From positions 453,663 through 517,662 of the forward strand of contig CP011210.1 of the NCBI GenBank assembly GCA_001029675.1: a DNA stretch of 64,000 bases. The letters run 5' to 3'. The notes under the pieces are model-generated. The model made no database searches. It was not told where the DNA came from and saw only the letters and a list, made by a program, of their open reading frames with translations. The number at the start of each line of letters is the position of its first letter. Within the stretch, counting starts at the first letter, position 1. The position numbers and the translations under genes are program-made. This DNA comes from Candidatus Beckwithbacteria bacterium GW2011_GWC1_49_16. GTDB lineage: Bacteria > Patescibacteriota > Microgenomatia > UBA1400 > CG1-02-47-37. Shown one piece after another: positions 1,163-19,924 of the stretch.

Positions 1163-2011
1163 TTATAACAGTTTATCCAGCGGCAGGCCCAAGAGCGAGT
1201 CAAGTTGGCTTTTTAAGCTGGCGGCGGTTTCCCGGGAGTCGGGCCAAGGGGAAAAGCGGTAGTGGTCGAGGATCGCCAGTAACAGCTTAGCTTGCTCTGG
1301 CGGCAAAGGAAAAGTGTGCTGGTATTGATCTTTCAGGTTTGCCTCTGCCGAAAAGGCTAAGCTACCTTTGCCACCTTTGGCCTCTTGCAACTCCTTGATC
1401 AGTTTTATCTTGGTGGCTTTGTCAAGTTTTTCGTCGCGGAGTCTCATTAGTTCCGAAAGGTGCAAGAAAAGAATCCGGGCAACATGGCGCATGATGACGT
1501 CGTGCACCAGCGGTGAGGGTTCGCCGCGAAAACCTAAGTTGGTGGAGCGGGAAAAAACCATCTTGTCGATGCCGGTCAGTATCAAATCGACCTCGGGGTG
1601 GATGGCGTTACTAAACAGGGTGGAGAGTAACGCGTCGGCAATAGTCATGCGGGTTTTGTAAGACTCGACGTAGTTTTCGTTGATGTGGCTGTCGGTGGCC
1701 CAAAAGACGAGTTTTTTGACCAGGCGGCGGCGTTCGAGCCTTCCCGATTTGGTATCCGGATTGGCTTTTAAGAATTTATCTACTCTGGTTTCCACCGCTT
1801 TTGAGTGGATGACGGTGACGCTCTTTTTTCTTTCCCGGGCGAGTTTGACGCGGAACTTTAAGAATTTTCGGGCGTCGGCCTCGCCGAACAGGCCGGCCAT
1901 AAAGTCAAAGCGGGGATTCCAATCGTCTTTAAAAGCCAGTCTTAGGGCTAGGTCAAATCTTAACCAGGCGTAAACCGCCAGCATCAAAAAATACTTCACT
2001 CCCCTTTTCAT
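1163..2011 (-). CDS. hypothetical protein with an N-terminal hydrophobic segment
   Basis: 282-aa ORF with core-like GC content. It is directly upstream of atpB but is too long and too hydrophilic to be AtpI. No recognisable motif. Confidence 0.45.
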   Translation of the reverse strand: MKRGVKYFLMLAVYAWLRFDLALRLAFKDDWNPRFDFMAGLFGEADARKFLKFRVKLARERKKSVTVIHSKAVETRVDKFLKANPDTKSGRLERRRLVKKLVFWATDSHINENYVESYKTRMTIADALLSTLFSNAIHPEVDLILTGIDKMVFSRSTNLGFRGEPSPLVHDVIMRHVARILFLHLSELMRLRDEKLDKATKIKLIKELQEAKGGKGSLAFSAEANLKDQYQHTFPLPPEQAKLLLAILDHYRFSPWPDSRETAASLKSQLDSLLGLPLDKLL

Positions 2012-2038
2012 CGTTTTAGTTTACCACGAGCGGTTATT

Positions 2039-2311
2039 TTACCGATTCAGATACATAATTTCCTTAAAAACTCTTCTCAGTTGAATTTTCAACTCGGCCC
2101 TACCTTTACCGCCTTTTAAGTAGACCTCTCGTCCTTTTGCGTCAGCTCTGTTTTTGTAGGCTTCGTAGTAAATTAACTCTAACGGTAAACGATGTTTGGT
2201 TGCTTTAACGTAGCCGTTATTGTGTTTTTTAAGCCTCGCCTTTAAGTCGGGAGTATAGCCGGTGTAAAGTTTTCTATCTTTCTTTGAGAATAAAATATAG
2301 ACGTAGTGCAT
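2039..2311 (-). CDS. GIY-YIG nuclease family protein
   Basis: 90 aa. MHYVYILFSKKDRKLYTGYTPDLKARLKKHN matches the GIY-x10-YIG motif and the conserved Arg of the UPF0213-type small GIY-YIG proteins. It is the first AT-rich gene of the island. Confidence 0.8.
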   Translation of the reverse strand: MHYVYILFSKKDRKLYTGYTPDLKARLKKHNNGYVKATKHRLPLELIYYEAYKNRADAKGREVYLKGGKGRAELKIQLRRVFKEIMYLNR

Positions 2312-2573: not shown

Positions 2574-3218
2574 ATGGCAAAAAAGACAAAACTAGTGAGC
2601 ATGCGAAAACCGATCTATTTAGTGCTATTTATAGTAATTCTCGCTCTCGGTGCTCTAATCTGGTACAAAAACTGGCAAAGCAAGTTTGAGGCTCCGAAAC
2701 AAGGTACTCAATTAATTGGGTTTACGATTAAGAAAGACACTTCCTTAATGGCGGTAGTTGGCGATCTTCACTATTACGGATTTATTAAGGATGAGGATGC
2801 CTTTAAATACGCTTTAGAGCACACAAAGGACAATACTCCAGGCAAGGCGAATGCTCTTACCATTGGTAATAACACTATCGACCGAGAAGCTAGATATAAA
2901 ATCTCTCAGAGTATGACTGCTTGGCAAATAGCAGACGTACTGCTTAACCAAGGTGAACTTAGTACATGCGACCATGGCTGTCCTGATAGTAATTTTGATC
3001 CAGAACTTCTTCCTGGTGGGGATTTAGCTCCTACTCTGAAAGAAAAGTATTCTGGGGTCAAAACTTACGAAGATTGCACTAAGGCAATTGGTCATGACGG
3101 AGGTCAACTCTCTTCAGAGCAATATGCCCAAAGAACAGGAATCAGAAGATGTGTTGCCCCTGATGGTCGAGAATTTACTCAAGGAAAAGAGGGTTGGTCG
3201 GACGTTCCTACTCCTTAG
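2574..3218 (+). CDS. hypothetical membrane-anchored or secreted protein
   Basis: 214 aa with an N-terminal TM/signal anchor (IYLVLFIVILALGALIWY) and a Cys-containing extracytoplasmic domain. No recognisable family. Confidence 0.5.
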   Translation: MAKKTKLVSMRKPIYLVLFIVILALGALIWYKNWQSKFEAPKQGTQLIGFTIKKDTSLMAVVGDLHYYGFIKDEDAFKYALEHTKDNTPGKANALTIGNNTIDREARYKISQSMTAWQIADVLLNQGELSTCDHGCPDSNFDPELLPGGDLAPTLKEKYSGVKTYEDCTKAIGHDGGQLSSEQYAQRTGIRRCVAPDGREFTQGKEGWSDVPTP

Positions 3219-4012
3219 CTAGTTATTTTTTCTTTATTTACCAGCGCCACGCTTTTGTTTAGCTCGTCCTTCAAAACGCTGAGCTCTGTTAACAACCCCT
3301 GTTTTCCAAAATATTTGGCTGCCACCTCCATTATTCTGCGTAACATATCAAATGCTCCAATCAAGTTGTTTTCCTGACCCTTAGTTTGTGGACCAGCAGA
3401 AAAGGTGGTGACATCATCAATTTTTGCAGACACTAATTGATTCAATACAATTGGCTGTGAATGAGCGTGCTGACTGGCTAAATTGTAGAAAACATCGTAC
3501 TCCCAACTACACCCAGTCTTCTTACAGAGTTCCTTAAAACTATAGCCTGACCATTTATACTTATCTGGCCTCTTATACCTCTTGTAAAACTGGATCTTTG
3601 CTTTGAGTCTTGCTTGGTAAATATCCAACGGAAACTCTTTCTTAAGCCTTCTTTTATTTTTTGCGTAGTCGAGCATGAAAAATTGTTGTACTTGGATATG
3701 CTCAATATATCGCCTAGCTCGAGTGTCTCTTTTTGTTTCATTAAGAATGTAGGTTAAATTTACCAAATCCTCAAACATTGAACGGACGATACTGTCCGCC
3801 TCCATACCATATCCAGACTTACACAAAATAACAGTAGCAGAATGACTGCGAATAGCTTTAGCAATTAAAGCTAGAAGAATATCAGTTTTGCGTGTTTTTG
3901 ATGGTGCCGTAAAACTGTTGAAGTGTTTTCCAGCCGCCGTTAATAAACGATCATTAAGTTCAAATAAACTCAATGAATCTTCAATGACACTTTTTGTCTG
4001 GTCTCTATTCAT
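3215..4012 (-). CDS. hypothetical protein, last gene of the LexA-CBASS operon (possibly HEPN-like)
   Basis: 265 aa. Its start overlaps the upstream gene's stop by 4 nt. It contains an R-x4-H (RRYIEH) and HAH residues. A JAMM-like spacing was checked and does not fit. Confidence 0.5.
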   Translation of the reverse strand: MNRDQTKSVIEDSLSLFELNDRLLTAAGKHFNSFTAPSKTRKTDILLALIAKAIRSHSATVILCKSGYGMEADSIVRSMFEDLVNLTYILNETKRDTRARRYIEHIQVQQFFMLDYAKNKRRLKKEFPLDIYQARLKAKIQFYKRYKRPDKYKWSGYSFKELCKKTGCSWEYDVFYNLASQHAHSQPIVLNQLVSAKIDDVTTFSAGPQTKGQENNLIGAFDMLRRIMEVAAKYFGKQGLLTELSVLKDELNKSVALVNKEKITS

Positions 4013-5679
4013 AGGTTAATTTTATTTCCCTTGCTATCGGCAATACTCATCTGTATTTTAGACTTTTGCTTCGGATATTTCTTCAAAAACTCTTGGTTTT
4101 CACTGACTAAAGATACGGTGTAATAAACAGTTCCATCTTTCCTTTTCAAATCTCTGCCGTGGAGTAAGCCCTCTCTCCTAAGTTTTTTAATCGAAGATGG
4201 ATGGACTCCGTGATTAGATGTAATCTGCAATCTTTCAAACCAGTTACTTTTATCGTCATGGCGATGCTTGAGGGGTGGAATAACGCCTTCTTTGATATTG
4301 TTCCAGCAATCTCTGCACCATAAACCGTTTAATGTCCACCAGATATCCTTTCCGTAGTAATACTCTCCACAAATTCCACAAGTATATGGACCTTTACCGT
4401 CGTCAAGGTAGAATCCTTCTGGCTCTTTCTCAAGTCTTCTTTTTCGTGTTGCTTCGATTCCATCAAATTCACCAGACATTCTTGCGAGTTGAACCAGGTT
4501 ATGACTCATATACTTAGCTCGTTTTTCTGAGTCACTGTTTGATTTTGGAGTTTTAACTTCTTTTTTGGCTCCAACCAATTCAAGTAAATCTTCTTCTTGC
4601 TCATATGCTTTCAGAGTGCCAGACAGATATCCAAGGCGATAGCGGATTCCATCACTCATAAGTCTCCAGTTGGTGTCTTCTAAAGTATCTTTCAGGAGTT
4701 TCTTGAGGGTTGCTTCGCTTATATTAGGATTTCTTGTTGAGTTAGCATCTAAAACATTAAAAGGAATCGTAACAAACCTGCCCATATCAGGTTTATCCAG
4801 CGTGAACTTAACGTATTTCTCCTTTTCCAATTTTTCAGTAAGCAATTTCTCGATTTCAAGAACGGTTAATCTTTTTAGATTGACTGCTGTTTGGTAGGCT
4901 TTGTCATCATATTTCTGTTTTTCTTCTTCATACACTTCATGACCTACTTCCATTGCTTCGAGTGTTTCGACGTGTTCTATGCCATCTTTTTCGTTTAAAC
5001 AAAACTCTCCTCGATACTTTTCAAGAAGTTTTTTGCCTTCTTCTTCCTTTTTCTTTTGCTCTTCCTCCCATTTCTTATGCTCCTCATCATGTTTAGCAAG
5101 ATCCTCAATTTCAGTTTTTGTATAACCACAGGCTTTGCATTTATGTTTCCAAGTAATGACTTTGCCTTTTCGAGTAGCTTTTATATCCATTTCTTCTTTG
5201 CACTTTGGGCAAAGGTCAGGCTTTGATAAGCGGATCTCATTATCGTCATATACCCACTGTTGTTTCTCGCATTTACTGCATTTAAAAAGAAACATCATGC
5301 GCATGATCGGGTTATCGTATGAGTAATCAAGGTGTTTTGAAGAATTGAAAGACATTGAACCGCCACAGAGGGGGCAAACAATTCCTTCTGGGATTGGAGT
5401 GTGATCTTGCTTATCCTGTTTTAGTTTGTCTTCTTCCATCCACTTCTGGATAGTTTCTTGTTTCTTTTCATACCTTTTGCCTTTTATAGTAAAAAGGGTA
5501 CGATGAAGCATAAGGTTTGCGTCATGCGATTTGACTTCTTGGGAAATATCCTTAAGCTCTTCGCTAGTAAGACTAGTTTTATAAATATCCTGAAACATTT
5601 TTACCGTATCAAGACACTCTTCAATGGTATGAAGGTCGTAGCGGTCAACATAATTTTGTTCATCATTTAGGTATTGCAT
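4009..5679 (-). CDS. multi-zinc-ribbon protein with a coiled-coil/Lys-Glu-rich linker, function unknown
   Basis: 556 aa with three CxxC...CxxC clusters (CPLCGG...CSKC; CPKC...CKAC; CGICGE...CRDC). The gene is translationally coupled on both sides, overlapping its neighbours by 17 nt and 4 nt. Confidence 0.5.
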   Translation of the reverse strand: MQYLNDEQNYVDRYDLHTIEECLDTVKMFQDIYKTSLTSEELKDISQEVKSHDANLMLHRTLFTIKGKRYEKKQETIQKWMEEDKLKQDKQDHTPIPEGIVCPLCGGSMSFNSSKHLDYSYDNPIMRMMFLFKCSKCEKQQWVYDDNEIRLSKPDLCPKCKEEMDIKATRKGKVITWKHKCKACGYTKTEIEDLAKHDEEHKKWEEEQKKKEEEGKKLLEKYRGEFCLNEKDGIEHVETLEAMEVGHEVYEEEKQKYDDKAYQTAVNLKRLTVLEIEKLLTEKLEKEKYVKFTLDKPDMGRFVTIPFNVLDANSTRNPNISEATLKKLLKDTLEDTNWRLMSDGIRYRLGYLSGTLKAYEQEEDLLELVGAKKEVKTPKSNSDSEKRAKYMSHNLVQLARMSGEFDGIEATRKRRLEKEPEGFYLDDGKGPYTCGICGEYYYGKDIWWTLNGLWCRDCWNNIKEGVIPPLKHRHDDKSNWFERLQITSNHGVHPSSIKKLRREGLLHGRDLKRKDGTVYYTVSLVSENQEFLKKYPKQKSKIQMSIADSKGNKINL

Positions 5680-6496
5680 TCTTTTTGTTTAATCCTTTTA
5701 AACTGAATACTGGCTGTTTAAAATGAGATCCACCGAACATGCTGTTCCATTCATCTTTGTCATTTATGTAGAAACTAGAAATGTCTTTACTGCTAACAGG
5801 TTTTTTATAATGCAACAGGATTATTGCTCGCATATTATTCAGTAGTGAGCAGACAAAGAGACACTTCCCGAAAATTCTGCCAATCTTAAAATTCAACGTA
5901 TGCTGTAAGACTATTGGAACTCCATCTCTGGTTTCCTTAGAAAAATAAGTAATCGTACTATCGGAGTCGTTCAGCTTAAAATGTTGTCCATTCCCAACGG
6001 AGATAGAAAGAGTTGTCTGGCTATGATTGGCTTTAACCCTATAACCATGTTTATAGGCATTGAGCAGATCGTAGTCGCCTAAATAATCCTTAGCGACTTC
6101 CTTAATTAAATTTGTATAAAGATTATATTTCTCATTTGTTCCACTATTATCTTTGAGAACAGAAAAGATTAATTTAAAAAACCAGGATGAAAGTTCCGTC
6201 GTCTTAGCGAAATTCTCACTAATGAAGTTGCGAAGATTAAAAGAATCGATAAATAAGGCTGAAGGGAATCTGTCAACCGTGACCGACAAAGCATGAGAGT
6301 TAATAAATAAAATCTCTGTCGCCTGTAAATAAAGCGTATATAAATCTAAGACAACTCTGTTTTGTTTTTTCTTATCCTTCAATCTTTCAAACTTGTTATA
6401 TAGCTGGATTGTCTTTTTAGTCAAACTATCGAAATCAGCATTTTCGTAGTGTGAAAGTTTAAAATCATCCAATTCTTTTTCTAAATCCGGAGTCAT
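5663..6496 (-). CDS. hypothetical protein co-transcribed with the CBASS effector
   Basis: 277 aa. It overlaps the effector gene by 4 nt (ATGA coupling). The region is AT-rich. No recognised motif. Confidence 0.5.
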   Translation of the reverse strand: MTPDLEKELDDFKLSHYENADFDSLTKKTIQLYNKFERLKDKKKQNRVVLDLYTLYLQATEILFINSHALSVTVDRFPSALFIDSFNLRNFISENFAKTTELSSWFFKLIFSVLKDNSGTNEKYNLYTNLIKEVAKDYLGDYDLLNAYKHGYRVKANHSQTTLSISVGNGQHFKLNDSDSTITYFSKETRDGVPIVLQHTLNFKIGRIFGKCLFVCSLLNNMRAIILLHYKKPVSSKDISSFYINDKDEWNSMFGGSHFKQPVFSLKGLNKKNAIPK

Positions 6497-7119
6497 AGCG
6501 TTTTATATTCCAGTTGTTCAGCATCCTCGAAATTTTCAGCAATCATGCAGGAATACCTGTCCAAGATAACAGTCCCAGCACCTTTTCTATCTGTAAAGTA
6601 ACTACCGAGCAATTTCTTGACTGGATTCCCTACAATATCAAATACGCTTGCTCCATCATGCGGTCTGTTATTATCTCTCTTACCATAAGGTGCTTCACTC
6701 TTATACAGATAAACAAGCTTTTTTCTATCTGGTTCTTCTTCAATCTTGGCGGTGACAGATTTAGAAGCCGACGGTTTCTTAAAGAATGAGCGGACTGATA
6801 CAGAAGTAAAAGTCTGATTAATAGCAACATAAATATCAGTCTCGCCGCTCATACCTTTCTCGTCACTCTCAAATTTTAGTTTTCCTTTCCATGTTCCATA
6901 AAGAATTGGCACTCCTAAAAATTGAGCTAGATATTTAAAGATCCACTTTCTCCAAATCCATTTATCATATGTAGTCCAGATAATAACCACCAAACTAGTT
7001 GCTCCCGACAACCAACGGAACAAGTTATCGTCAATAGACTGTCTCGTTACGAACGATAAAACAAAGATAAGTACTGAATATAAGAGAATGGCAGTTTTGA
7101 TTATTCGTTGCTGATTCAT
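6493..7119 (-). CDS. 2-TM membrane effector, Cap15-like candidate CBASS effector
   Basis: 208 aa. Two N-terminal hydrophobic helices (IIKTAILLYSVLIFVLSFV; SLVVIIWTTY) are followed by a soluble domain of about 130 aa. Its start lies 1 nt after the cyclase stop. Confidence 0.55.
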   Translation of the reverse strand: MNQQRIIKTAILLYSVLIFVLSFVTRQSIDDNLFRWLSGATSLVVIIWTTYDKWIWRKWIFKYLAQFLGVPILYGTWKGKLKFESDEKGMSGETDIYVAINQTFTSVSVRSFFKKPSASKSVTAKIEEEPDRKKLVYLYKSEAPYGKRDNNRPHDGASVFDIVGNPVKKLLGSYFTDRKGAGTVILDRYSCMIAENFEDAEQLEYKTL

Positions 7120-7120
7120 A

Positions 7121-8023
7121 TTATTTATTTAATAAGTTATAGGCACTCTTTATAAATTGTTTAGCATCATCTTTGGTCCAGTTTTGTTGTCCGTGGAATA
7201 AATATTTACATCCATTTACCTCACGCCACCTACAATCTTCAGAAAGAGTGTACTCGTCTTTTAGTAAATATGTCCACACCTCCTCACATCCTCTCAAAAC
7301 AATATCACGCCAAATCTCATTATTTGTGTAAATAGGATTGCTGACGTTATATGCCAAACTTTCAATCATGAATGATGGAAAGGGCGAGGTGTTGTTATTC
7401 TCAGAAAGGTGACCGTTAACATTTTTTAGAATACGTGCCACATTTTTAAATCGCTTCGAGGTCGAAGTATTTTTCTCAATTCCATTTTCAAGATGTTGAT
7501 CAGGGTAATTGAAATGTCTAATGCCATCAGGTCTGTTTAAAATTAACTGTATACCTTGGTTGTAATTTGTAGATCCAGTCGAATAATAATACCGATATGT
7601 GGTACATGGAATTATGTCAGCATCCAGTATCTTATCTGACCCTCTAATTTTGAAAACCTTATTACCTGATGAATCGACCAAGTTCTTCCCGAACTCAGTT
7701 TCTAGTGCTTTCTGTAAGCGAAGTTTAAAATCAATTTCTGAAATGCCTGTATAGCCGAAAAGACCAGTATTTGAAAATCCAACGCCTTCAGCATAGTTCA
7801 GGTTGATCATATCTTGTAGCTCAACAGCAATATCAATGTCTGAGTCATGTCTAACATTAGTATTATTTGGATAGGATCCTTTTGCAAAAACCCTAATACC
7901 CAAGTCACTCAAATGAGTATCAACAGCTGATTTAACAGTATCTTTTGTCTTTTCTGCTCTTTCCTCCTCGTTGTTAAACCAAGGTTTGATCCAGCCAGAT
8001 AGTTGATCATCGCTAATATTCAT
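7121..8023 (-). CDS. cGAS/DncV-like nucleotidyltransferase (CD-NTase, SMODS-type CBASS cyclase)
   Basis: 300 aa. It has the Pol-beta superfamily signature FAKGSYPNNTNVRHDSDIDIAV (GS...DxD) and a downstream third acidic residue (ILDADIIP). Its size and motif spacing are typical of CD-NTases. Confidence 0.7.
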   Translation of the reverse strand: MNISDDQLSGWIKPWFNNEEERAEKTKDTVKSAVDTHLSDLGIRVFAKGSYPNNTNVRHDSDIDIAVELQDMINLNYAEGVGFSNTGLFGYTGISEIDFKLRLQKALETEFGKNLVDSSGNKVFKIRGSDKILDADIIPCTTYRYYYSTGSTNYNQGIQLILNRPDGIRHFNYPDQHLENGIEKNTSTSKRFKNVARILKNVNGHLSENNNTSPFPSFMIESLAYNVSNPIYTNNEIWRDIVLRGCEEVWTYLLKDEYTLSEDCRWREVNGCKYLFHGQQNWTKDDAKQFIKSAYNLLNK

Positions 8024-8043: not shown

Positions 8044-8253
8044 TCACTTTGCCTTACTCCTGTTATATGGATGCCTGTTGTGCGGCATAAGTGAAACATT
8101 TAAATCTTGAGCCTTAGCTTGTATCGCCCCAGGAGTTCTACTCATCTTTAATCCAATAACTCTCGTAGGGGTGTTACCTCTCGCGAGTTTTCGTAGTTGG
8201 GATTCCTGAGTCGGAGACCATTGTTTTCCTTGATTTGCTGGTTTCTTTGTCAT
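8044..8253 (-). CDS. small HTH DNA-binding protein resembling the GcrA N-terminal domain
   Basis: 69 aa. WSPTQESQLRKLARGNTPTRVIGLKMSRTPGAIQAKAQDLNVSL follows the W-x3-E...L-x2-L...G...I...L...R...A...AK...L pattern of GcrA-type or phage HTH proteins. Its start is 2 nt from the lexA stop and its stop is 20 nt upstream of the cyclase start. Confidence 0.45.
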   Translation of the reverse strand: MTKKPANQGKQWSPTQESQLRKLARGNTPTRVIGLKMSRTPGAIQAKAQDLNVSLMPHNRHPYNRSKAK

Positions 8254-8255
8254 AA

Positions 8256-8879
8256 TTAATCACCGCCTTTCTTAATAACATCCTCGACAACGCCTTGAAT
8301 AGAGAAGTCTTCAAATAATAATATTGGTTTATTTTTTGGGTTAGTAGATTCTGGTTGAAGACGTACGTAGCCATCTTCAGGAATTATCTTCTTAATTGTT
8401 GCCTCATCACCAATAAGTGCGACTACACGACTACCGGGGTCAGCTGTTTGCTGTTTTTTAATTAGGACAAAATCTCCATCATCAATTGTTTTTCCGGAAA
8501 CTCTGGCGTTATTCATACTGTCGCCTATTGCCCGTAGGAAAAAATAATTGTCCGGAGTTCCACTGATCTTCGAAGCATCAAATTGAATGTAGGCCTCAAC
8601 ATTTTCGGTAGCTAAGAATGGAACTCCACACGCTACATTGCCTACAAGGGGAATTTGTACTTTGTCAGATGAGTCCGGTAAAGCTAATCCTCGAGTATTT
8701 TCCAGATACCCCTTTTCTTTCAGTGCATCAGTGTGTCGCTGAACGGAGCTTATACTAGCTAAACCCAAGGTCACACGAAGTTCTTCAAGTGTGGGAGTTG
8801 TACCATTTTTATTTGCCTGATCCTTAATAGAAGACAGGACTATCTTTTGCTTTGAGGTTAAAGTCTTTCTCATACGCAC
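8256..8879 (-). CDS. lexA: LexA-like S24 autopeptidase repressor
   Basis: 207 aa. The N-terminus is a LexA-type winged helix (TPTLEELRVTLGLASISSVQRHTDALKEKGYLE). It has a VACG cleavage-site-like segment, the Ser nucleophile GDSM and a downstream KK. Confidence 0.85.
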   Translation of the reverse strand: MRMRKTLTSKQKIVLSSIKDQANKNGTTPTLEELRVTLGLASISSVQRHTDALKEKGYLENTRGLALPDSSDKVQIPLVGNVACGVPFLATENVEAYIQFDASKISGTPDNYFFLRAIGDSMNNARVSGKTIDDGDFVLIKKQQTADPGSRVVALIGDEATIKKIIPEDGYVRLQPESTNPKNKPILLFEDFSIQGVVEDVIKKGGD

Positions 8880-9084: not shown

Positions 9085-10407
9085 ATGAAAAACATACCTA
9101 TCCAAACGATCGAAGTTCCAATAATGGACCTAGTCTCACCAGACTACAATCCTCGTAAGCATGACGATCTGGCAAAGGAACAATTAAAAGAAAGTATCAG
9201 ACGCTTTGGGATCGTTGACCCAATTGTGGCAAACTCTGCACCAACTCGTAAAAATATAATCATCGGTGGAAATTTTAGATGGGAAACCATAAAGGAGTTG
9301 GGATATAAAACTGTTCCAGTCGTTTATGTAGATATTTCAGATCTGGAAAAGGAAAAAGAGTTGAACATTCGTCTCAATAAGAATACAGGTGAATTTGATT
9401 GGGATTTACTTGCTAAGTTTGATGAGTCATTCCTTGCTGATATTGGTTTTTCCAGTGGTGAACTCGATGGTATTTTTGATATTGACGTCCCAGAAGAATT
9501 CGACCTTGAAAAAGAACTTAAAAAGTTAAATATCCAGAAGATCAATGTTCAAAAAGGTGACATCTATTCTCTTGATGACTCAAAACTAATGTGTGGGGAT
9601 TCTACTATTGAAGCTGATATCTTAAAACTCATGGATGGTAAAAAAGCAGATATGTGTCTGACTGATGAACCATATTTGCTCGATTACGTTGGTGCAAAAC
9701 GTCACGGAAAACCAACAACTGGCTTTGGTGCCAAACGTAACAGAAGGTATCTTGAAACCGATGTTTTGCCGCCTAACTTTATATCCCTTTGGATGTCAAA
9801 TATCGCAAAGGTAGCAAAACCAGATTTCAGCATCATCTCGTACGAAAATTGGAAGAACACCCGAGCCATGTGGGACGAGATCGAGAAGTATTGGAAGGTG
9901 CGCAACATGCTGATATGGAGATTACCAAACAGACACCAGGGGTTTTCAGCTAAATATAAATTTTTCTCAAAATACGATATAGCTATGGTTGGAACAAGTG
10001 AGGGAAACCAAATAAATACAGAGGTGGAAGAAGAACTCCTGCAAAACGAATACGAAACCGCCTTGTATGCAACTTCAGGAAAGCCTCATTGGGAAGGCTA
10101 TGAACATGGAAAGAAGAATCAGCCAACCGATTTTATAGAGTTTAATGCTTCGGATGAAAAACACTCTGGTCAGGGAGTTGTGTTTGGCTGTAAGCCTACA
10201 GAGATTCTTATCCCCTATATCAAGATGCTTACAAAACGTGGCGATTTAATTGTCGAGCCATTTGGGGGAAGTGGAAGCACTCTAATTGCGGCCACCAAAA
10301 TGAAACGACGATGTTACATCATGGAAAAGTCTCCTGTATATACAGAGGTAATTATAAAACGCTGGGAAAATTTAACGGGACAAAAAGCCAAAAAAATCTA
10401 TGGATAA
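9085..10407 (+). CDS. ParB-like nuclease domain fused to a DNA methyltransferase (beta-class N6A/N4C)
   Basis: 440 aa. The N-terminus has a ParB/Srx fold (DYNPRKHD...IVDPIVAN...IIGGNFRWE). The C-terminus has a degenerate DPPY-type motif (TDEPYL) followed by an FGGSGST AdoMet-binding motif, in the permuted beta order. Phage and plasmid ParB-MTase fusions have this architecture. Confidence 0.75.
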   Translation: MKNIPIQTIEVPIMDLVSPDYNPRKHDDLAKEQLKESIRRFGIVDPIVANSAPTRKNIIIGGNFRWETIKELGYKTVPVVYVDISDLEKEKELNIRLNKNTGEFDWDLLAKFDESFLADIGFSSGELDGIFDIDVPEEFDLEKELKKLNIQKINVQKGDIYSLDDSKLMCGDSTIEADILKLMDGKKADMCLTDEPYLLDYVGAKRHGKPTTGFGAKRNRRYLETDVLPPNFISLWMSNIAKVAKPDFSIISYENWKNTRAMWDEIEKYWKVRNMLIWRLPNRHQGFSAKYKFFSKYDIAMVGTSEGNQINTEVEEELLQNEYETALYATSGKPHWEGYEHGKKNQPTDFIEFNASDEKHSGQGVVFGCKPTEILIPYIKMLTKRGDLIVEPFGGSGSTLIAATKMKRRCYIMEKSPVYTEVIIKRWENLTGQKAKKIYG

Positions 10408-10819
10408 CACTATCGAAAAAAGGCAATCAAAAAATAAAGAACAGCTGTTAGAGATACTAAAGAAAACTCCAATAGTTCAAATTGCCTGTGAAAAGGCTGG
10501 AGTAAGTCGAGCCACCTATTATCGATGGCGTAAAGATAACTCTGGATTTTCTCAGGCAAGTGATCAGGCATTATTAGATGGAAGCTTGCTGATAAATGAT
10601 ATGGCCGAAAGTCAAATGATAAGCGCTATCAAAGACAAGAATATGACTGCCATAATCTTTTGGCTTAAGACTCATCATGATGCCTATCGCAATAGAGTTG
10701 AAGTAACCACAACCAATGGCAACCAAGAAATTAACCTTACAGATGAACAAAAGGAACTGTTAAATAAAGCAATAGAGATGGCGGCATTAATTCCGCCCAA
10801 AGAAAACAGCAATGAATGA
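10400..10819 (+). CDS. terS: phage terminase small subunit (HTH type)
   Basis: 139 aa. It has an N-terminal HTH (IACEKAGVSRATYYRWRKDN) and directly precedes, and overlaps, the terminase large subunit. Confidence 0.65.
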   Translation: MDNTIEKRQSKNKEQLLEILKKTPIVQIACEKAGVSRATYYRWRKDNSGFSQASDQALLDGSLLINDMAESQMISAIKDKNMTAIIFWLKTHHDAYRNRVEVTTTNGNQEINLTDEQKELLNKAIEMAALIPPKENSNE

Positions 10820-12356
10820 CCAAGAACAAATAATCAAACAAATTCAGGAAAATCCTGACTTTCGGAAAGTATTAACGAAGGAGAATTTCTATTGGTTTTT
10901 TGTTACCTACTTTCCCCATTATATAACTTGCCCAACCGCTGATTTTCAAAAGGAAATCTTCAATCTCATTCAGAATGAGGAATTACAAAAAATCACAATC
11001 ACAGCCTTTCGCGGGTCGGCAAAATCTACTATTGCAACTTTGGCACTACCCATTTGGGCAATGGTCGGTAAACCCACCAAAAAATATACTCTACTAGTGA
11101 GCTTAACTCAGGGGCTTGCCAAGCAAATTCTTACGAACATAAAACAGGAGCTTTCATCAAACGAACTCCTAATGCGGGATTTTGGACCATTTTCAGAAGT
11201 GGCTGAAGAATGGCGATCTAACTCTCTTGTAATACCACGTTACAATTCCAGAATTTCAGCCATATCGCAAAGTGAAAGAATTAGAGGTCTCAGGCATAGG
11301 CAGTACCGACCAGACCTTATCATTATTGATGATGTTGAGGATCTAGAATCGGTTAAGACAAGAGAAAGCAGAGACAATCTTTGGAATTGGTTTTCGGGTG
11401 AAATAAAGCCTATTGGAGATAGTGGTACCAGAATTATTACCGTAGGCAATTTACTACATTTGGACTCGCTAATGATGCGGATTAAGCAAAACGTTCAAGC
11501 AGGCGCAATGGACGGTATTTATAAAGAATTTCCTTTGTTAGATAGTTATGGAAATATTGCCTGGCCTGGAAAATATCCGACTATGGAGGATATTGAAGCC
11601 AAAAGAAAAGATGTTGCCGACGAGGCAGCTTGGTATCGAGAATTTTTACTAAAAATTATTGCGGACGAAGACAGAATTGTTAAAGGAGCTTGGATTAAAT
11701 ACTACGACACCCTACCGGACTTTGATCGCTATCCGGCAAGATTAATTGCCATAGGAGTCGACTTGGCTATTTCTCTTTTGGCGTCAGCAAATTTAACAGC
11801 CTTAGTACCAGCATACATAGTTGGTTACGGAGACAATCTCCAAGTTTATATTTTGCCTTACATTTTAAACAAACGATTGGATTTTCCTCAAACTATTCAG
11901 GCAATTAAAATTCTTACTGAAAAACTAAAAGTCGGTTATAGACCGCACCCTAGGGTATATATAGAAAGCGTGGGGTATCAGAGTGCGGCTGCCCAACAAC
12001 TAATAGTAGAGCATGTTCTGGCCGAGGAAGTTAGAATTCCACAGTTAGACAAAAGATCAAGACTATCGATAATTTCTCCACTTATTGAGCAAGGCAAAGT
12101 ATTTTTTCCCAGATCAGGAGCTGAAGTGTTAATTGATCAATTACTGAACTTTGGAGTGGAAAAATACGATGATCTAGTTGATGCTTTCACCTTACTTATG
12201 TCAAAAATAATTGAAACAGACCACCCAACGAACAGAAGTACTCATTCAGATTTGCCACCAGAACCAGATCCACACCCTGGTTTGACATGGTCACTTGAAC
12301 ATATGAATGACTTAGGATTTGATCTTGAAACCATCAAACTAAATATGGTTTTCTAA
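10812..12356 (+). CDS. terL: phage terminase large subunit
   Basis: 514 aa with a Walker A (FRGSAKST), a Walker B (DLIIIDDVED) and a C-terminal RNaseH-like nuclease region. No portal or capsid genes follow. Confidence 0.85.
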   Translation: MNDQEQIIKQIQENPDFRKVLTKENFYWFFVTYFPHYITCPTADFQKEIFNLIQNEELQKITITAFRGSAKSTIATLALPIWAMVGKPTKKYTLLVSLTQGLAKQILTNIKQELSSNELLMRDFGPFSEVAEEWRSNSLVIPRYNSRISAISQSERIRGLRHRQYRPDLIIIDDVEDLESVKTRESRDNLWNWFSGEIKPIGDSGTRIITVGNLLHLDSLMMRIKQNVQAGAMDGIYKEFPLLDSYGNIAWPGKYPTMEDIEAKRKDVADEAAWYREFLLKIIADEDRIVKGAWIKYYDTLPDFDRYPARLIAIGVDLAISLLASANLTALVPAYIVGYGDNLQVYILPYILNKRLDFPQTIQAIKILTEKLKVGYRPHPRVYIESVGYQSAAAQQLIVEHVLAEEVRIPQLDKRSRLSIISPLIEQGKVFFPRSGAEVLIDQLLNFGVEKYDDLVDAFTLLMSKIIETDHPTNRSTHSDLPPEPDPHPGLTWSLEHMNDLGFDLETIKLNMVF

Positions 12357-13506: not shown

Positions 13507-16017
13507 ATGCAAAAAGAAGCAAAAGCACGGATCAAAATTAACAATCTTCTTCAGGAGTCCGGCTGGAGATTTTTTGATGATGAGCATGGAACGGCGAATA
13601 TAGTTCTAGAAAACAATGTCAAATTGACAAAGCAGGTAGTTGACGAATTAGGCAATGATTTTGATAAAACCAAGAACGGTTTCATAGATTTTCTTCTACT
13701 TGATGAAAAGTGTTTCCCTTATGCAGTGCTGGAAGCTAAATCTGAGGACAAAGATCCTCTAGATGGGAAAGAGCAGGCTAGAAGATACGCCCAGTCACAA
13801 AACGTTCGTTTTATTGTTCTTTCCAATGGTAATGTTCATTACTTCTGGGATTTAGAGCGAGGCAATCCATCTTTTATTTCCTCGTTTCCCACACAAGAAT
13901 CTCTCAAACATTTTGTTTCGTACAAGCCAGACTCTAAGAAATTGACAGAAGAAAAAGTTTCAGAAGATTACATAGCTTTAACTCAAAATCCTACATACCA
14001 AAAAGATCCTCGCTGGCAAGATGAGGTACTTAAACACGATCAAATTCAAGAACAGGATTTGAAGTTTCTACGCCCATATCAACTTAGGGCCATAACTGCT
14101 TTGCAAGAATCTGCCCAAAATGGCAATGACCGTTATCTTTTTGAAATGGCAACTGGTACCGGTAAGACTCTAACCTGTGCCGCCGTTATCAAGCTTTTCC
14201 TGAAAACTGGCAATGCCAAACGAATTCTCTTTTTAGTTGACCGTATTGAGTTGGAAGATCAGGCGGCCAAGAATTTCAAAAAATATTTGGCTAAAGATTT
14301 CACCAGCGTTATTTATAAAGAAAATCGTGATGATTGGCGTAAAGCTGAAATTGTGGTTTCGACTGTTCAAAGCCTTTCAACTAATAATAAATATCAGAAG
14401 TTATTTAATCCTACCGATTTTGATTTAATTATCTCTGACGAGGCACACCGTTCAATTGGTGGTAATAGTAGAGCTGTCTTTGAGTATTTCGTGGGTTACA
14501 AGCTAGGACTTACGGCTACGCCTAAAAACTACCTGAAAGGTATTGATCCAAATCAGCTTAATGCTCGTGATCCTCGGGCTTGGGAAAAACGTCAACTTCT
14601 AGATACCTATAAGACTTTTGGTTGTGAAACAGGAGAACCAACCTTCCGCTATAGTCTTCTTGACGGTGTCAAAGAAGGTTTTCTGGTCAACCCAATAGTT
14701 GCTGATGCCAGAACGGAGATTACTACACAACTCCTTTCTGATGAAGGGTATTCTCTTTTAGTTGATACAGAAGAAGGCAAAGAGGAACAAGTTTTTTATC
14801 AATCAGATTTTGAGCGAAAGTTTTTCTCTGACAAAACTAATCTAATTTTTTGTGAGACTTTCTTAAAGAATGCCTTGATGGATCAAATCTCTGGAGAGGT
14901 TGGCAAAAGCATTATTTACTGTGTGAGTCAAAAACATGCCAGTAAAATTACACAGCTTCTAAATCAGCTCGCTGATAGTTACTGGCCAGGAAAATATAAT
15001 TCCGATTTTGCTGTGCAGGTAACTTCTAATATTCCTGATGCTCAGCAATTCACAATAGGCTTTGCTAATAACAACCTTAATGGTCACACGCCTTGGCTGG
15101 AAGGTTATAAGTCCAGCAAAACTAGAGTTTGCGTGACGGTGGGTATGATGACTACTGGCTATGATTGCCAAGATATATTAAATCTTTGTTTAATGCGGCC
15201 AATTTTTTCCCCAACAGATTTCATTCAGATCAAAGGACGTGGTACACGAAAATACGCCTTTACCTTTGAAAATCGTGAGAATGGTGAAATTGAGAAAGTC
15301 AGGGTTGATAAAGAAAAATTCAAATTATTTGATTTCTTTGCTAACTGTGAGTATTTCGAAGAGAAATATAACTATGATGAAATTCTAAAAATTCCTAAGA
15401 CAATTTCGGGCACAGGACCAGGCGGAGAACCTACGGTTAATATTGATGTGACCATTGGTATCCCAGATCCTCTCAAAACATTCCAAGAAAAAGCGATTGG
15501 TTTACAAGGAATGAAAGTAGATCGCAAGATTTTTGAAAAGTTTGAGGAAACGGTTAAGGCAGATTCTTTCATCAAAGAAAAATACGAAGCTGGCGATATG
15601 CAGGCAGTTGAGGATTATGTGAAGACTGAGGTTTTTGATAAACCTGAAGATTATTTCAATTTAGACAAGCTTCGTAAATCAGTCAAGGTTGACCGTCGGC
15701 TTTCCCTGGGAGAAATAATGGATAAGATTTTTGGGCGGTTAGATAAATTTAAAGATAAAGATGAACTTTTAGAGGAAGAGTTTGAAAAGTTTATCTCAAT
15801 TTACAAGCCAGATAGTAAGTACTACTACCCAATAAAGAATTTCCTCAAAGCTTATATTACTGATAACGAGATTAGAGAAATTGTAGAAACAAAGGAATAC
15901 GGTCGGTTTGCAACAAACCCAAAAGTATCACTAGTAGACTTTAAGGCCTTGAACGGGTACCGTGACGTCGTGCCAGAGTATGTAAAGGACTACGTATCAG
16001 TTAATACGTATATGTAA
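13507..16017 (+). CDS. hsdR: type I restriction enzyme R subunit (short form)
   Basis: 836 aa. The N-terminus is an HsdR_N-type PD-(D/E)xK domain (IDFLLLDEKCFPYAVLEAKS). SF2 helicase motifs follow: GTGKT (Walker A), DLIISDEAHRS (DEAH), and TTGYDCQ motif VI. Confidence 0.8.
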   Translation: MQKEAKARIKINNLLQESGWRFFDDEHGTANIVLENNVKLTKQVVDELGNDFDKTKNGFIDFLLLDEKCFPYAVLEAKSEDKDPLDGKEQARRYAQSQNVRFIVLSNGNVHYFWDLERGNPSFISSFPTQESLKHFVSYKPDSKKLTEEKVSEDYIALTQNPTYQKDPRWQDEVLKHDQIQEQDLKFLRPYQLRAITALQESAQNGNDRYLFEMATGTGKTLTCAAVIKLFLKTGNAKRILFLVDRIELEDQAAKNFKKYLAKDFTSVIYKENRDDWRKAEIVVSTVQSLSTNNKYQKLFNPTDFDLIISDEAHRSIGGNSRAVFEYFVGYKLGLTATPKNYLKGIDPNQLNARDPRAWEKRQLLDTYKTFGCETGEPTFRYSLLDGVKEGFLVNPIVADARTEITTQLLSDEGYSLLVDTEEGKEEQVFYQSDFERKFFSDKTNLIFCETFLKNALMDQISGEVGKSIIYCVSQKHASKITQLLNQLADSYWPGKYNSDFAVQVTSNIPDAQQFTIGFANNNLNGHTPWLEGYKSSKTRVCVTVGMMTTGYDCQDILNLCLMRPIFSPTDFIQIKGRGTRKYAFTFENRENGEIEKVRVDKEKFKLFDFFANCEYFEEKYNYDEILKIPKTISGTGPGGEPTVNIDVTIGIPDPLKTFQEKAIGLQGMKVDRKIFEKFEETVKADSFIKEKYEAGDMQAVEDYVKTEVFDKPEDYFNLDKLRKSVKVDRRLSLGEIMDKIFGRLDKFKDKDELLEEEFEKFISIYKPDSKYYYPIKNFLKAYITDNEIREIVETKEYGRFATNPKVSLVDFKALNGYRDVVPEYVKDYVSVNTYM

Positions 16018-16022
16018 ATATT

Positions 16023-19000
16023 ATGTTAACTCAAGAAACAAAACGAAAAATAGATTCAGCCAGAGATATCCTGGTTGGTAAAGTTCCTGATCCTAAAGCT
16101 CAAGTTGAACAAATTACAACAGCCATGATCTATAAATTCATGGATGATATGGATAAAGATGCTGTGGAACTTGGAGGCAAAGCTCGCTTCTTTACTAATG
16201 GATTTGAAAAATATGCTTGGAGCAAACTTTTAGATTCTAGATTGGGTGGACACGAACGATTAGACCTTTACGCTGAAGCCATAGTACAGATGTCCAGTAA
16301 TCCCCATATTCCCCAATTATTTAGGGATATTTTTAAGGACGCATTTCTACCATATCGTAGTCCGGAAACATTGAGCTTATTCCTTAAGGAGATCAACAGT
16401 TTTACATACGATCATAGTGAGGATTTAGGTGATGCTTTTGAGTATCTACTTTCTATCATGGGTTCCCAAGGAGATGCTGGGCAGTTTCGTACTCCACGTC
16501 ACATAATCGATTTTATAGTAGCTGTAGTTGATCCCAAAAAAGACGATTCAATTTTGGACCCTGCTTGTGGAACTGCTGGATTTTTAATCTCTGCATATAA
16601 ACACATTCTCAAACAACACGATGGTAGGGATGATCCGAAACATAAAGAAAAACCGTTAACACCTGACGACAAAAAGCGATTAATGAACAATCTTTTCGGC
16701 TACGATATTAGTCCTGACATGGTTAAGCTCTCCAAAGTAAACATGTACCTGCATGGCTTTGCTGAACCCAAGATTTTTGAATATGACACTCTTTCTAGCG
16801 ATGAAAAATGGGACGAGACATATGACGTAATTATGGCAAACCCACCATTTATGACTCCAAAAGGCGGCATACGCCCACACAAGCGGTTCAGCGTACAAGC
16901 AAATCGTGCCGAAGTGCTGTTTGTGGATTATATTAAAGAACACCTACGGCCGAATGGTCGAGCGGGAATTATTGTACCTGAGGGGATCATTTTTCAGTCA
17001 GGCAATGCATATAAACAACTCCGTAAAATGTTAGTTGAAGATGGTCTGTTTGCGGTAGTTTCATTACCTAATGGAATATTCAATCCTTACTCTGGGGTAA
17101 AGACAAGTATTTTGTTTTTTGATAATGTGTTAGCAAAAAGAACAAATGAAATATTGTTCGTAAAAATTGACAGCGATGGATTTGACCTCGGAGCTCAAAG
17201 AAGGAAAATTGAAAGTAATGACCTCACTGCCGCCCTGATAATTTTGAAGAAATATATAGAGGACCCCAACACTACTCTCCTAATCGAAGTAAAAAACTTA
17301 GCCACCTTGGTTTCAAAAACAAGAATTTCTGAGAAGGGTGATTATAACTTGAGTAGTGATGAATACAAACAAACCGAAGTAATAAGCAACAAGAGATGGC
17401 CAATGAAGGAATTGGGAAGTTTATTCGAAATGATAAACGGGAGAGCATTTAAAAAAGAAGAATGGAAAACCAACGGAACGCCCATTATCCGAATAGCAAA
17501 TCTCAATGACAATAATGCTGAATTCAATTATTTTGAAGGAAATTGTGATGATAAAATTATTGTCAAAAATGGCGACCTACTTTTTTCCTGGTCAGGAACT
17601 CGTGGCACTTCATTCGGCCCACATATATGGAATAGAGGCAAGGGTGTTCTTAATCAACACATATATAAATTTCAACCCTTACAAGGAGATATAGATATTG
17701 CTTTTGCTTATCTTGTTATAAAAATAATTGTTCCCGAGATCGAAGCCCAAGCTCATGGTGCTGGGGGTCTGGTACATATTACGAAAGAAAAACTTAAACA
17801 TTTTAGAATTCCTGTTCCACCACTTCCTGTTCAAAAGCAAATAGTTGAACAAATTGAAGGTTATCAAAAGATCATTGAGGGAGCAAAACAAGTTGTAAAA
17901 AATTGGAAACCAATAACTGATATCAATCCTGATTGGGAAACAGCACTGATCCAGGATCTTTGTACTTTGGTGCGTGGTAGTTCACCTAGGCCTAAAGGAG
18001 ATAAACGGTATTACGATGGAAAAATCCCCAGACTGATGGTCTCAGACGTAACTAGAGATGGCATGTATACAACTCCCCAAACTGATTCGCTTACAGAAGA
18101 AGGATCTAAGCTTAGTCGTCCAATGAAAAAGGGTGAAGTTGTAATGGCTGTAAGCGGTAATCCAGGGTTGCCAACAATTCTTACAGTTGACGCATGTATC
18201 CATGACGGTTTTGTCGGATTTAGAAAGCTGTCCAGTAAAATAATTCCAGAATTTCTATATTTTATACTTTTGCGCCAAAAGGATGAAAATAACTCTCGAT
18301 CAGTTGGTGCAGTATTTAAAAATCTAACTACAGACCAAATAAAGAAGTTTAAGATTCCTGTCCCCCCTATCAATATCCAACTTGAATTAGTTGAACAAAT
18401 AACCCAAGAGCGTCAGGTTGTTGGTGCCAATGAAGAAATCATCAGAGAGTATGAGGCTAAAATTCAGAACGAGATAAAGGATGTTAATGATGGAAAAGCA
18501 CACTCTCCCCTAAGTAAGAATCAAAATGAACTAATTAAACAGCTTAAGGACGACTTTGAGTCAATTGAGTCAGAAGTTATTAGGATGATGGGCAACAAGG
18601 AGATATTCAAAGAGATTATTGAGATCTCTAAAAGAAATAGCCAGATAAATAAGGGTAACTCCCTGTGGGACTTTCTAAAAGAAAGTTATGTTGCACTAAT
18701 GGTGTCTGCGGTTTGTAGGCAAATTGATACAGACGAACGTTCGTCTAGCTTGGTAAATCTTTTAAGAACAATTCTTTTTAACCCGACAGTTATCCAGAGC
18801 TTAAACAAGGACTGGTATAGCGAACAATATCATCGCGATAACGACATCTTTCCAGGTTTCATGGAAGGAATCGGGAAGGGTGATTTTGAGGAACACTTTG
18901 GTTCAAAAGAATATGTAGATCCAGCTATCGTTTACATGGATCTAAAGAAGCTAGAGGAAGATACAAAAGAAATAAAGAAATACCGCAATAAAAGAATTGC

Positions 19001-19184
19001 CCATTTTGATAAAAAGGAATCACTTTTCAAAGCAAATTATGATGATTTGCATAAAGCAGTAGAAACTGTACGATCAATCGCAAGTAAATATTACTTACTG
19101 CTTAAACAGGGTGGCAATGATCTTATTCCGTCTGATCAAACCGATTGGCAGGAGATACTAACAATTCCCTGGATCAAAAAATAA
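16023..19184 (+). CDS. hsdMS: type I R-M HsdM-HsdS fusion with a C-terminal HEPN/Abi-like domain
   Basis: 1053 aa. The N-terminus is an N6-adenine MTase (DPACGTAGFL motif I; MANPPF motif IV). Two HsdS target-recognition domains follow (LGSLFEMINGRAFKKEEW...NQHIYKF; LCTLVRGSSPRP...FILLRQK) around a central conserved helix. The extra C-terminal domain of about 250 aa contains RNKRIAHFD (R-x5-H). Confidence 0.8.
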   Translation: MLTQETKRKIDSARDILVGKVPDPKAQVEQITTAMIYKFMDDMDKDAVELGGKARFFTNGFEKYAWSKLLDSRLGGHERLDLYAEAIVQMSSNPHIPQLFRDIFKDAFLPYRSPETLSLFLKEINSFTYDHSEDLGDAFEYLLSIMGSQGDAGQFRTPRHIIDFIVAVVDPKKDDSILDPACGTAGFLISAYKHILKQHDGRDDPKHKEKPLTPDDKKRLMNNLFGYDISPDMVKLSKVNMYLHGFAEPKIFEYDTLSSDEKWDETYDVIMANPPFMTPKGGIRPHKRFSVQANRAEVLFVDYIKEHLRPNGRAGIIVPEGIIFQSGNAYKQLRKMLVEDGLFAVVSLPNGIFNPYSGVKTSILFFDNVLAKRTNEILFVKIDSDGFDLGAQRRKIESNDLTAALIILKKYIEDPNTTLLIEVKNLATLVSKTRISEKGDYNLSSDEYKQTEVISNKRWPMKELGSLFEMINGRAFKKEEWKTNGTPIIRIANLNDNNAEFNYFEGNCDDKIIVKNGDLLFSWSGTRGTSFGPHIWNRGKGVLNQHIYKFQPLQGDIDIAFAYLVIKIIVPEIEAQAHGAGGLVHITKEKLKHFRIPVPPLPVQKQIVEQIEGYQKIIEGAKQVVKNWKPITDINPDWETALIQDLCTLVRGSSPRPKGDKRYYDGKIPRLMVSDVTRDGMYTTPQTDSLTEEGSKLSRPMKKGEVVMAVSGNPGLPTILTVDACIHDGFVGFRKLSSKIIPEFLYFILLRQKDENNSRSVGAVFKNLTTDQIKKFKIPVPPINIQLELVEQITQERQVVGANEEIIREYEAKIQNEIKDVNDGKAHSPLSKNQNELIKQLKDDFESIESEVIRMMGNKEIFKEIIEISKRNSQINKGNSLWDFLKESYVALMVSAVCRQIDTDERSSSLVNLLRTILFNPTVIQSLNKDWYSEQYHRDNDIFPGFMEGIGKGDFEEHFGSKEYVDPAIVYMDLKKLEEDTKEIKKYRNKRIAHFDKKESLFKANYDDLHKAVETVRSIASKYYLLLKQGGNDLIPSDQTDWQEILTIPWIKK

Positions 19185-19185
19185 T

Positions 19186-19833: not shown

Positions 19834-19924
19834 TAATTACGGCTTATACTCATCAACCACGCCGTAAAGCAATTTGAAGAGTAACCCCTTTTGAGCCTAG
19901 ACTTCCACGACCCTTCCCGGTACC

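Follow-up and report, generated by a model that had tools for sequence, protein, structure and literature searches.

Three genes overlapping the 3′ end of a Patescibacteria CBASS operon appear to be exchangeable cargo of a mobile-element hotspot

In the genome of Candidatus Beckwithbacteria bacterium GW2011_GWC1_49_16, a type I cyclic-oligonucleotide-based antiphage signaling system (CBASS) is followed by three overlapping genes encoding proteins of 277, 556 and 265 residues, here called p277, p556 and p265. They lie in a 64-kb stretch of contig CP011210.1 (the window, in whose numbering positions are given) and were originally predicted to form either a new CBASS accessory or signal-sensing module or a separate defense system sharing the same regulator. 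The analysis presented here points instead to a LexA-headed string of separately exchangeable cassettes in the cargo region of a mobile element, not one system, an explanation to which we assign a probability of roughly 0.6. It draws on the gene order and overlaps, the family assignments, the mosaic distribution of the genes and their defense-rich neighborhoods. That the trio is mobile-element hotspot cargo is very probable from these comparisons, and we are just as confident that it is not a CBASS accessory set, because the signatures of such sets are absent and because the trio does not co-occur with CBASS in other genomes. With somewhat less assurance, at least one of the three proteins probably has a part in defense against phages or other mobile elements.

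All genes of the putative operon are on the minus strand. The first encodes a LexA-like repressor (8256–8879) with LexA_DNA_bind and Peptidase_S24 domains (Pfam, 9e-23 and 1.7e-12; PHROG transcriptional repressor, 7.6e-24) and is paired with the gene for a small protein of 69 residues, p69 (8044–8253; phrog_323 ‘transcriptional regulator’, 2e-7). These are followed by a 300-aa CD-NTase, the CBASS cyclase (7121–8023; PADLOC cyclase PDLC00794, 3.3e-100), and a 208-aa Cap15-type effector with two transmembrane segments (2TM; 6493–7119; Pfam Cap15_CD_rec, 7.5e-15; PADLOC 2TM effector, 6.6e-38), a pair that these profile matches identify as a true type I CBASS. Then come p277 (5663–6496), p556 (4009–5679) and p265 (3215–4012), the last gene of the operon. 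The open reading frame (ORF) list and the junction sequences bear out the overlaps first reported: cap15 and p277 share 4 nt (ATGA, 6493–6496), p277 and p556 share 17 nt (5663–5679), and p556 and p265 share 4 nt (ATGA, 4009–4012). Because of these overlaps, the trio is probably co-transcribed with the CBASS genes. A consensus scan placed a promoter-like site upstream of the LexA gene (8928–8901, minus strand) and a terminator-like hairpin 51 nt past the p265 stop codon (3141–3164, minus strand); between 8879 and 3215, the sole terminator-like site that it returned on this strand before the end of p265 is a weak one inside p556.

To place the trio in other genomes, p556 loci were collected by a pattern scan with one genome per species, which found 110 loci, of which 80 were kept (L-numbers below denote collected genome loci). 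Neighboring genes were counted by tblastn (1e-5) and clustering of ORFs from our own simple caller, which overlooked the p556 homolog of L113 that tblastn found. No homolog of the window CD-NTase, Cap15 or p265 was detected at any of the 80 loci, and p277 at only one, which speaks against an accessory or signal-sensing role of the trio in CBASS. Further evidence in the same direction comes from the elements with the nearest relatives of the trio genes, where these stand behind an 815-aa protein, an 1180-aa-like protein, DSR1 or type I restriction–modification (RM) genes, and from the presence of p277 inside RM operons and in other places. Thus, in other genomes the trio is not found with CBASS, whereas each of its genes does co-occur with defense genes. 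The second option of the original prediction, a separate defense system sharing the regulator, survives in spirit: the trio sits in a defense-rich hotspot, and the LexA-like repressor precedes other cargo elsewhere. No housekeeping or prophage function was found by homology for p277, p556 or p265, and Pfam and PADLOC scans agree with the initial finding that the trio bears no E1/E2/JAB, HORMA/TRIP13 or OGG/QueC signature; the type III CBASS operon beside a p556 homolog in L013 exemplifies a positive result.

The neighborhoods of p556 are those of a hotspot. A ParB-methyltransferase gene lies divergently upstream of p556, at a distance of 0.25–9.7 kb, in 35 of the 80 loci; TerS/TerL homologs are present in 33, a serine recombinase in the flanks of 26, and a LexA-like gene in 16. 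At four loci (L014, L058, L061, L085), the methyltransferase and p556 are immediate neighbors, without intervening cargo, and elsewhere cargo fills the gap. The defense genes of the hotspot include RM, CBASS types I and III, DSR1, Shedu, ThsB-TIR, RVT and Cas4-like nucleases. Upstream of p556, L013 carries a type III CBASS with HORMA, AAA+ and SAVED components, L113 a split DSR1 (with a DUF5677-type gene beside p556), and L116 a type I RM system together with 300-aa and 1180-aa proteins of unknown function (with a DUF5677-type gene after p556). Shedu SduA_C and DUF2779/Cas4-like proteins are also among the neighbors, and the 149 nonredundant p556 neighbors include ResIII, Methylase_S, SAVED, SMODS, ThsB_TIR, RVT_1 and MvaI_BcnI. 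LexA–CD-NTase cassettes lie downstream of p556 in L035, L040 and L042, and other CD-NTases occur near p556, on either side, in a minority of loci. What comes next to p556 on the downstream side varies greatly and is on the opposite strand in approximately 20 loci; a constant need of p556 for a coupled partner downstream was rejected on these grounds.

Comparisons between individual loci locate the points of exchange. Between the window and L094 (2042–3709), p556 identity is 78–95% over residues 1–240, falls to 40–65% over residues 241–480, and returns to 80–94% over residues 481–556. In L113 (7349–9004), nucleotide homology to the window (82%) is confined to the last ~170 codons of p556 and the downstream p265, with protein identities of 50% for p556 and 87% for p265. 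L115 and L008 have in common an 815/818-aa protein (92% identical), p277 and the gene further downstream; only in L115 does p556 stand between p277 and that gene. From these three comparisons, we conclude that recombination exchanges cargo to either side of p556 as well as a portion of the p556 gene. Two p556 copies, in L019 and L021 (77% and 68% identical to the window protein), are present on one 414-kb contig, CAZBEF010000001.1, and there are therefore at least two such elements or hotspots in one genome. Many of the contigs from metagenome-assembled genomes (L014–L093) that carry Patescibacteria-type elements are titled ‘uncultured Gammaproteobacteria’ or ‘Pseudomonadales’, for which mislabeling or binning artifacts are conceivable.

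In the explanation that we favor, p277, p556 and p265 would be the distal genes of one polycistronic operon headed by the LexA-type repressor, in the variable cargo region of the element, and the operon may be induced by DNA damage in the manner of LexA. The CBASS pair would be the first cassette. The second would be p277, which appears to ride at the 3′ end of, or inside, unrelated defense operons (type I RM, CBASS, the 815-aa protein). The third would be p556, a putatively nonenzymatic protein and the most conserved resident of the hotspot, whose conserved ends could serve as homologous-recombination anchors for cargo exchange, and the fourth p265, a DUF5677 protein.

The p277 family is rare (43 clusters at 90% identity; 87 representatives at 50% identity in 1.84 billion proteins). 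Its AlphaFold2 model (predicted local distance difference test (pLDDT) score 89, predicted template-modeling score 0.87) consists of a helical domain (residues 1–150), which is weakly HEPN-like, and a beta domain (residues 154–265). Down to ~20% identity, E61, N146, K149 and H150 are invariant and Q58, L145 and R153 nearly so; the motif LLNAYKHGYR, at residues 144–153 (6038–6067), is invariant. The canonical HEPN Rx4–6H motif is not conserved: the window protein has R153-x4-H158, and H158 is replaced by F or Y in several homologs. No Pfam family was matched, even with distant members included, no PDB relative was returned by profile search, and neither p277 nor p265 matched the PADLOC-DB v2 defense models. 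We suggest that E61, N146, K149, H150 and R153 are the likely active site, carried on the HEPN-like bundle, and that p277 is an abortive infection (Abi)-type effector, perhaps a nuclease, that would act as a back-up once the upstream system fails, as PrrC does; the assignment as a nuclease-type Abi effector is tentative.

Its contexts are diverse. p277 follows the CD-NTase and Cap15 genes (cdn-cap15) in only 3 of ~17 contexts: the window, L097 and L102. The cdn-cap15-p277 block shares ~70% nucleotide identity in these three lineages and is inherited together, which is the CBASS link that remains. Elsewhere, p277 lies between hsdM and hsdS (L004/5, L098, L100, L104–106), after 807–818-aa proteins (L006, L008, L115), or after an SDH-type protease (L001). 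It precedes p556 in the window, L094, L115, L010/11 and L015, and is followed directly by a 263-aa protein of the family here called c15 in L001, L008, L095 and L096. The whole trio stands behind the 1180-aa-like protein in L094, and the p277–p556 block behind the 815-aa protein in L115. A 207–211-aa protein that follows p277 in the order hsdM-p277-x-hsdS (L004, 8834–9457; L099, 967–1602) contains RNNYIH or RNNYLH, the canonical HEPN RNxxxH motif, with no Pfam or PADLOC match. The 807–818-aa proteins that repeatedly precede p277 (L115, 5713–8160; L008, 5542–7998; L006, 5575–7998) are unannotated, have a C-terminal CxxC...CxxC ribbon, and likewise gave no Pfam or PADLOC match. A homolog of the L116 1180-aa protein, which is upstream of p556 there with its 300-aa partner, precedes the trio in L094.

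By contrast with p277, p556 is a widespread Patescibacteria mobile-element protein: at least 628 clusters of homologs were found, nearly all ~555 aa long and 52–100% identical over the full length, and those bearing source names are labeled Patescibacteria or Roizmanbacteria. A second size class of ~360 aa is without the C-terminal ribbon and the winged helix-turn-helix (wHTH) described below. The zinc ribbons and the lysine- and glutamate-rich (KE-rich) coiled coil noted at the outset are both present: six CxxC motifs (residues 102, 134, 157, 181, 434 and 455) make up three ribbons, and K and E account for 58% of residues 194–226. Across 31 homologs, the invariant positions, all twelve CxxC cysteines among them, hold cysteine, aromatic or basic residues and form no catalytic motif. 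The AlphaFold2 model (pLDDT 84) shows a helical hairpin (residues 1–93), a beta-rich double zinc ribbon (97–193; 5101–5391), the coiled coil (194–266), an alpha/beta domain (273–360), the third ribbon (434–458) and a C-terminal helical/beta unit that includes a probable excisionase/HTH_17-like wHTH (477–535; 4075–4251). Pfam matches within the family are weak and consistent (Zn_ribbon_IS1595 in 20 of the 31 homologs, DUF1233 in six, AbiEi_4 in four, HTH_17 in three). The only PADLOC match was a weak one to TniQ (8.5e-4), Foldseek returned no fold relative below an E-value of 1e-3 and no PDB fold match, and a PDB profile search yielded, apart from zinc-finger noise, just POP6 at 0.003. Neither p277 nor p556 could be assigned to a known family with Pfam, PADLOC, PHROGs or NCBIfam, whose matches amounted to zinc-ribbon noise; in PHROGs, all three trio proteins matched only weakly, to families of unknown function, and pattern scans of IMG/VR viral contigs detected no relative of p556 or p277. 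By these searches, p556 and p277 belong to undescribed protein families. p556 may bind DNA as a regulator or sensor and not be an enzyme, for which we see an even chance.

p265 is the one member of the trio with a confident family assignment. It matches PF18928 (DUF5677) with 104.4 bits against a cut-off of 27.1 (8.8e-30), over model positions 2–162 of 166, and all 20 clusters of close homologs are annotated PF18928; these homologs follow DSR1 and other genes. A PDB profile search returned nothing meaningful for p265, and hhalign detected no homology between p277 and p265. In the window, L094, L113 and L114, p556 is followed by a p265-type gene that overlaps it at ATGA; L112 has such a gene without p556. 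Members of another DUF5677 subfamily (Pfam, ~2e-11) are found next to p556 in L016, L024, L043 and L049. The c15 family matches DUF5677 weakly, as it does p265 in hhalign; it can be aligned to both other subfamilies across the shared GY..E...L.R...E and Y.L.S...H motifs, and a joint hidden Markov model covers all three. The joint alignment and model support placing c15 in the DUF5677 superfamily. In L115 and L116, a c15 gene follows p556 with a 4-nt overlap, and the order p277–p556–DUF5677 therefore occurs with two paralogs ~20% identical, p265 (window, L094) and the c15 type (L115). The R-x4-H and HxH strings first noted in p265 are both present (R100-x4-H105 and H182-x-H184), whereas R-x4-H is not conserved across the DUF5677 subfamilies and was rejected as a HEPN motif. 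Only four polar residues are conserved across the three subfamilies, namely R77, E81, S180 and H184.

Several points weigh against a string of independent cassettes with immune roles. p556 has no informative structural match or catalytic motif, and a backbone function, a sensor or an anti-defense protein would all be conceivable. Full independence of the cassettes is challenged by recurrent pairings: a DUF5677-type gene comes after p277 in 4 contexts and beside p556 in ~10, p556 comes after p277 in 5, and the cdn-cap15-p277 block recurs in 3. Because the query genes themselves served as anchors for collecting loci and the ORFs came from a simple caller, the adjacency frequencies are biased and approximate. 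Finally, in the single published test that we found, nine candidates tried in Enterococcus included a DUF5677 ORF, which is missing from the five listed as lowering plaque formation (PMC12632615, preprint).

The first of these points leads to the alternative that fares best, in which p556 would serve the element itself as a backbone component unrelated to immunity (transcriptional regulator, directionality factor for recombination by the serine recombinase, or replication/maintenance factor), and p277 and p265 would be unrelated flanking cargo. The position of p556 next to the ParB-methyltransferase is conserved, as is even the divergent intergenic region of 250–540 bp that the two share, and the protein is under strong purifying conservation with a constant length. 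Its zinc-ribbon and excisionase/HTH_17-like signatures, its lack of a catalytic motif, the serine recombinase in its flanks at 26 of 80 loci and the two copies on one contig also fit such a role. Yet the L008 element has the same backbone and no p556, p556 is also found in the cargo slot of type IV secretion system (T4SS)-type elements that are without TerL and the ParB-methyltransferase, and the ~360-aa class is without the wHTH. The middle of p556 is, moreover, swapped between close relatives in the manner of a specificity module. On balance, we find a pure backbone role doubtful, and it overlaps with the cassette explanation.

A self-contained, modular three-component system is less likely again. 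Here, p277–p556–DUF5677 would comprise a sensor/adaptor and effectors that plug into the 3′ end of different defense operons, with the third position exchangeable between distant DUF5677 paralogs. The same three-family order with two DUF5677 subfamilies argues for it, as does the 93–94% identity of p277 and p556 between the window and L115. Every junction also appears to be translationally coupled, a DUF5677-type gene directly follows p277 in the four contexts with c15 named above, and such genes flank p556 in L016, L024, L043, L049, L113, L114 and L116. However, a DUF5677-type neighbor is missing from 76 of the 80 p556 loci and p277 from 79; p556 is often the last gene of its operon or sits by itself next to the ParB-methyltransferase; and p277 occurs without p556 or DUF5677, for example in hsdM-p277-hsdS. 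In L008, there is no p556 between p277 and the c15-type gene, and DUF5677 is widespread outside Patescibacteria, where p277 is absent. A bolder version, in which the trio would be a previously unknown Patescibacteria immune add-on, is marginally less probable than the modular system: p556 would be its nonenzymatic zinc-ribbon/coiled-coil sensor or adaptor, flanked by two effector-like proteins, and the add-on would dock behind CBASS, DSR1, type I RM or the 815-aa protein as a guard or second layer, with specificity changed through exchange of the DUF5677 gene and of the p556 middle domain.

The weakest reading, in which the whole trio or p277 alone would be a new accessory or signal-sensing part of CBASS, can appeal to the 4-nt overlap of p277 with cap15 and to the cdn-cap15-p277 unit kept in three lineages, but it is very improbable given that p277 occurs in at least 12 other contexts without CBASS, that p556 and p265 are never with a window-type CD-NTase or Cap15 outside the window, that L097 has cdn-cap15-p277 without p556 or p265, and that p277, p556 and p265 show no nucleotide-binding or ubiquitin-like signature.

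The operon is situated within a low-GC island at ~2000–23,500 (~21 kb; GC 0.36–0.43, compared with 0.50–0.55 outside). On the side of p265, a convergent YceG-like gene (2574–3218, plus strand, 214 aa) borders the cargo region and is syntenic at 75–92% identity beside different cargo in L008, L014 and L018. On the other side, divergent from the LexA gene, the plus strand encodes a ParB-N6/N4 methyltransferase (9085–10,407; Pfam), TerS (10,400–10,819; Pfam; PHROG, 6.5e-11) and TerL (10,812–12,356; Pfam; phrog_38, 2.5e-76). A type I RM system on this strand, assigned by Pfam, consists of HsdR (13,507–16,017) and an HsdM-HsdS-HEPN_AbiU2 fusion (16,023–19,184), a 1053-aa ORF in which an N6_Mtase HsdM and two HsdS target-recognition domains are joined to HEPN_AbiU2 at the C terminus. 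The same region (13,507–21,280, plus strand) also holds a 215-aa ORF and a large serine recombinase (19,925–21,280; Pfam). At the left island edge (1163–2311, minus strand) are a 282-aa ORF without annotation and a stand-alone GIY-YIG protein of 90 aa, and at the right edge (22,079–23,413, minus strand), just past the serine recombinase, is an AAA/STAND-like 444-aa ORF. Pfam and PHROG scans found no capsid, portal or tail genes between 2000 and 23,500. An ordinary prophage was rejected as the identity of the island in view of these missing virion genes, and the viral-contig scans were negative too. From its gene content, the island is best described as an integrative, satellite-like element with several defense systems, recurrent across Patescibacteria. 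The combination of serine recombinase, TerL/TerS and ParB-methyltransferase possibly represents an undescribed family of satellite-like elements; we found nothing specific in the literature on this element type or on p556-like proteins in the Candidate Phyla Radiation (CPR).

A second type of mobile element draws on the same cargo pool. L024, L031 and L006 contain T4SS genes (TrbC/pilin, PrgI, VirB4-like, M23 peptidase) and have one slot ahead of a trio of helix-turn-helix, 73-aa and PLDc_2 genes. The slot holds p556 with partners (L024, L031) or the 807-aa protein with p277 (L006). LexA-like homologs precede other cargo in L019, L023, L029, L036 and L090, and the LexA–p69 pair heads different cargo operons in four of these (L019, L023, L036, L090). 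LexA-like homologs follow p556 in L035, L040, L042 and L044, where such a gene can head another CD-NTase operon. The LexA/S24 and ~69-aa pair looks like a portable, damage-responsive regulator of defense cargo.

Comparison with known systems delimits what is new. Minimal type I CBASS (CD-NTase and Cap15) accounts for the two genes directly upstream, whose transcript the trio would share by overlap; the trio, in contrast, matches no defined accessory set (Cap2/Cap3, HORMA/TRIP13, OGG/QueC) and is not found after CD-NTases in other genomes. CapW/BrxR-type proteins and CapH-CapP are regulators of repressor-controlled CBASS. The window operon resembles repressor-controlled CBASS in that a DNA-damage-responsive type of repressor appears to head it; it differs in that the repressor is of the self-cleaving LexA/S24 type, is accompanied by a 69-aa protein, and heads other cargo elsewhere with that partner. 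P2/P4 hotspots and the immune systems borne by phage-inducible chromosomal islands (PICIs) are defense hotspots of prophages and phage satellites. As in these, a conserved backbone flanks a slot of mutually replacing defense systems, exchanged apparently by recombination in the flanking genes. The differences are the Patescibacteria host, a backbone of large serine recombinase, TerL/TerS and ParB-methyltransferase with no virion genes, and an undescribed anchor, p556; with its serine recombinase, TerS and TerL, the element is a candidate PICI-like satellite. The nearest parallels to p277 are PrrC and RloC, abortive-infection nucleases embedded in type I RM loci, and HEPN Abi proteins. p277 has no sequence relationship to PrrC or RloC, no ATPase domain and no conserved Rx4–6H motif. 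DUF5677 is statistically enriched beside serine recombinases in Bacillota (PMC12632615). The adjacency to serine recombinases is shared by the window element, whereas p265 is coupled to p556 by overlap.

Patescibacteria of the CPR have tiny genomes, and their phage resistance is poorly understood. The present analysis describes a recurrent integrative element of these organisms with a cargo slot in which CBASS, DSR1, RM, Shedu and other systems appear to replace each other. p556 could be used as a marker for mining defense hotspots in CPR genomes, and p277 and the genes of DUF5677 type offer concrete candidates for novel immune genes or for back-up effectors. For CBASS in general, the lesson is that tight translational coupling to the effector gene is not evidence for membership of the system.

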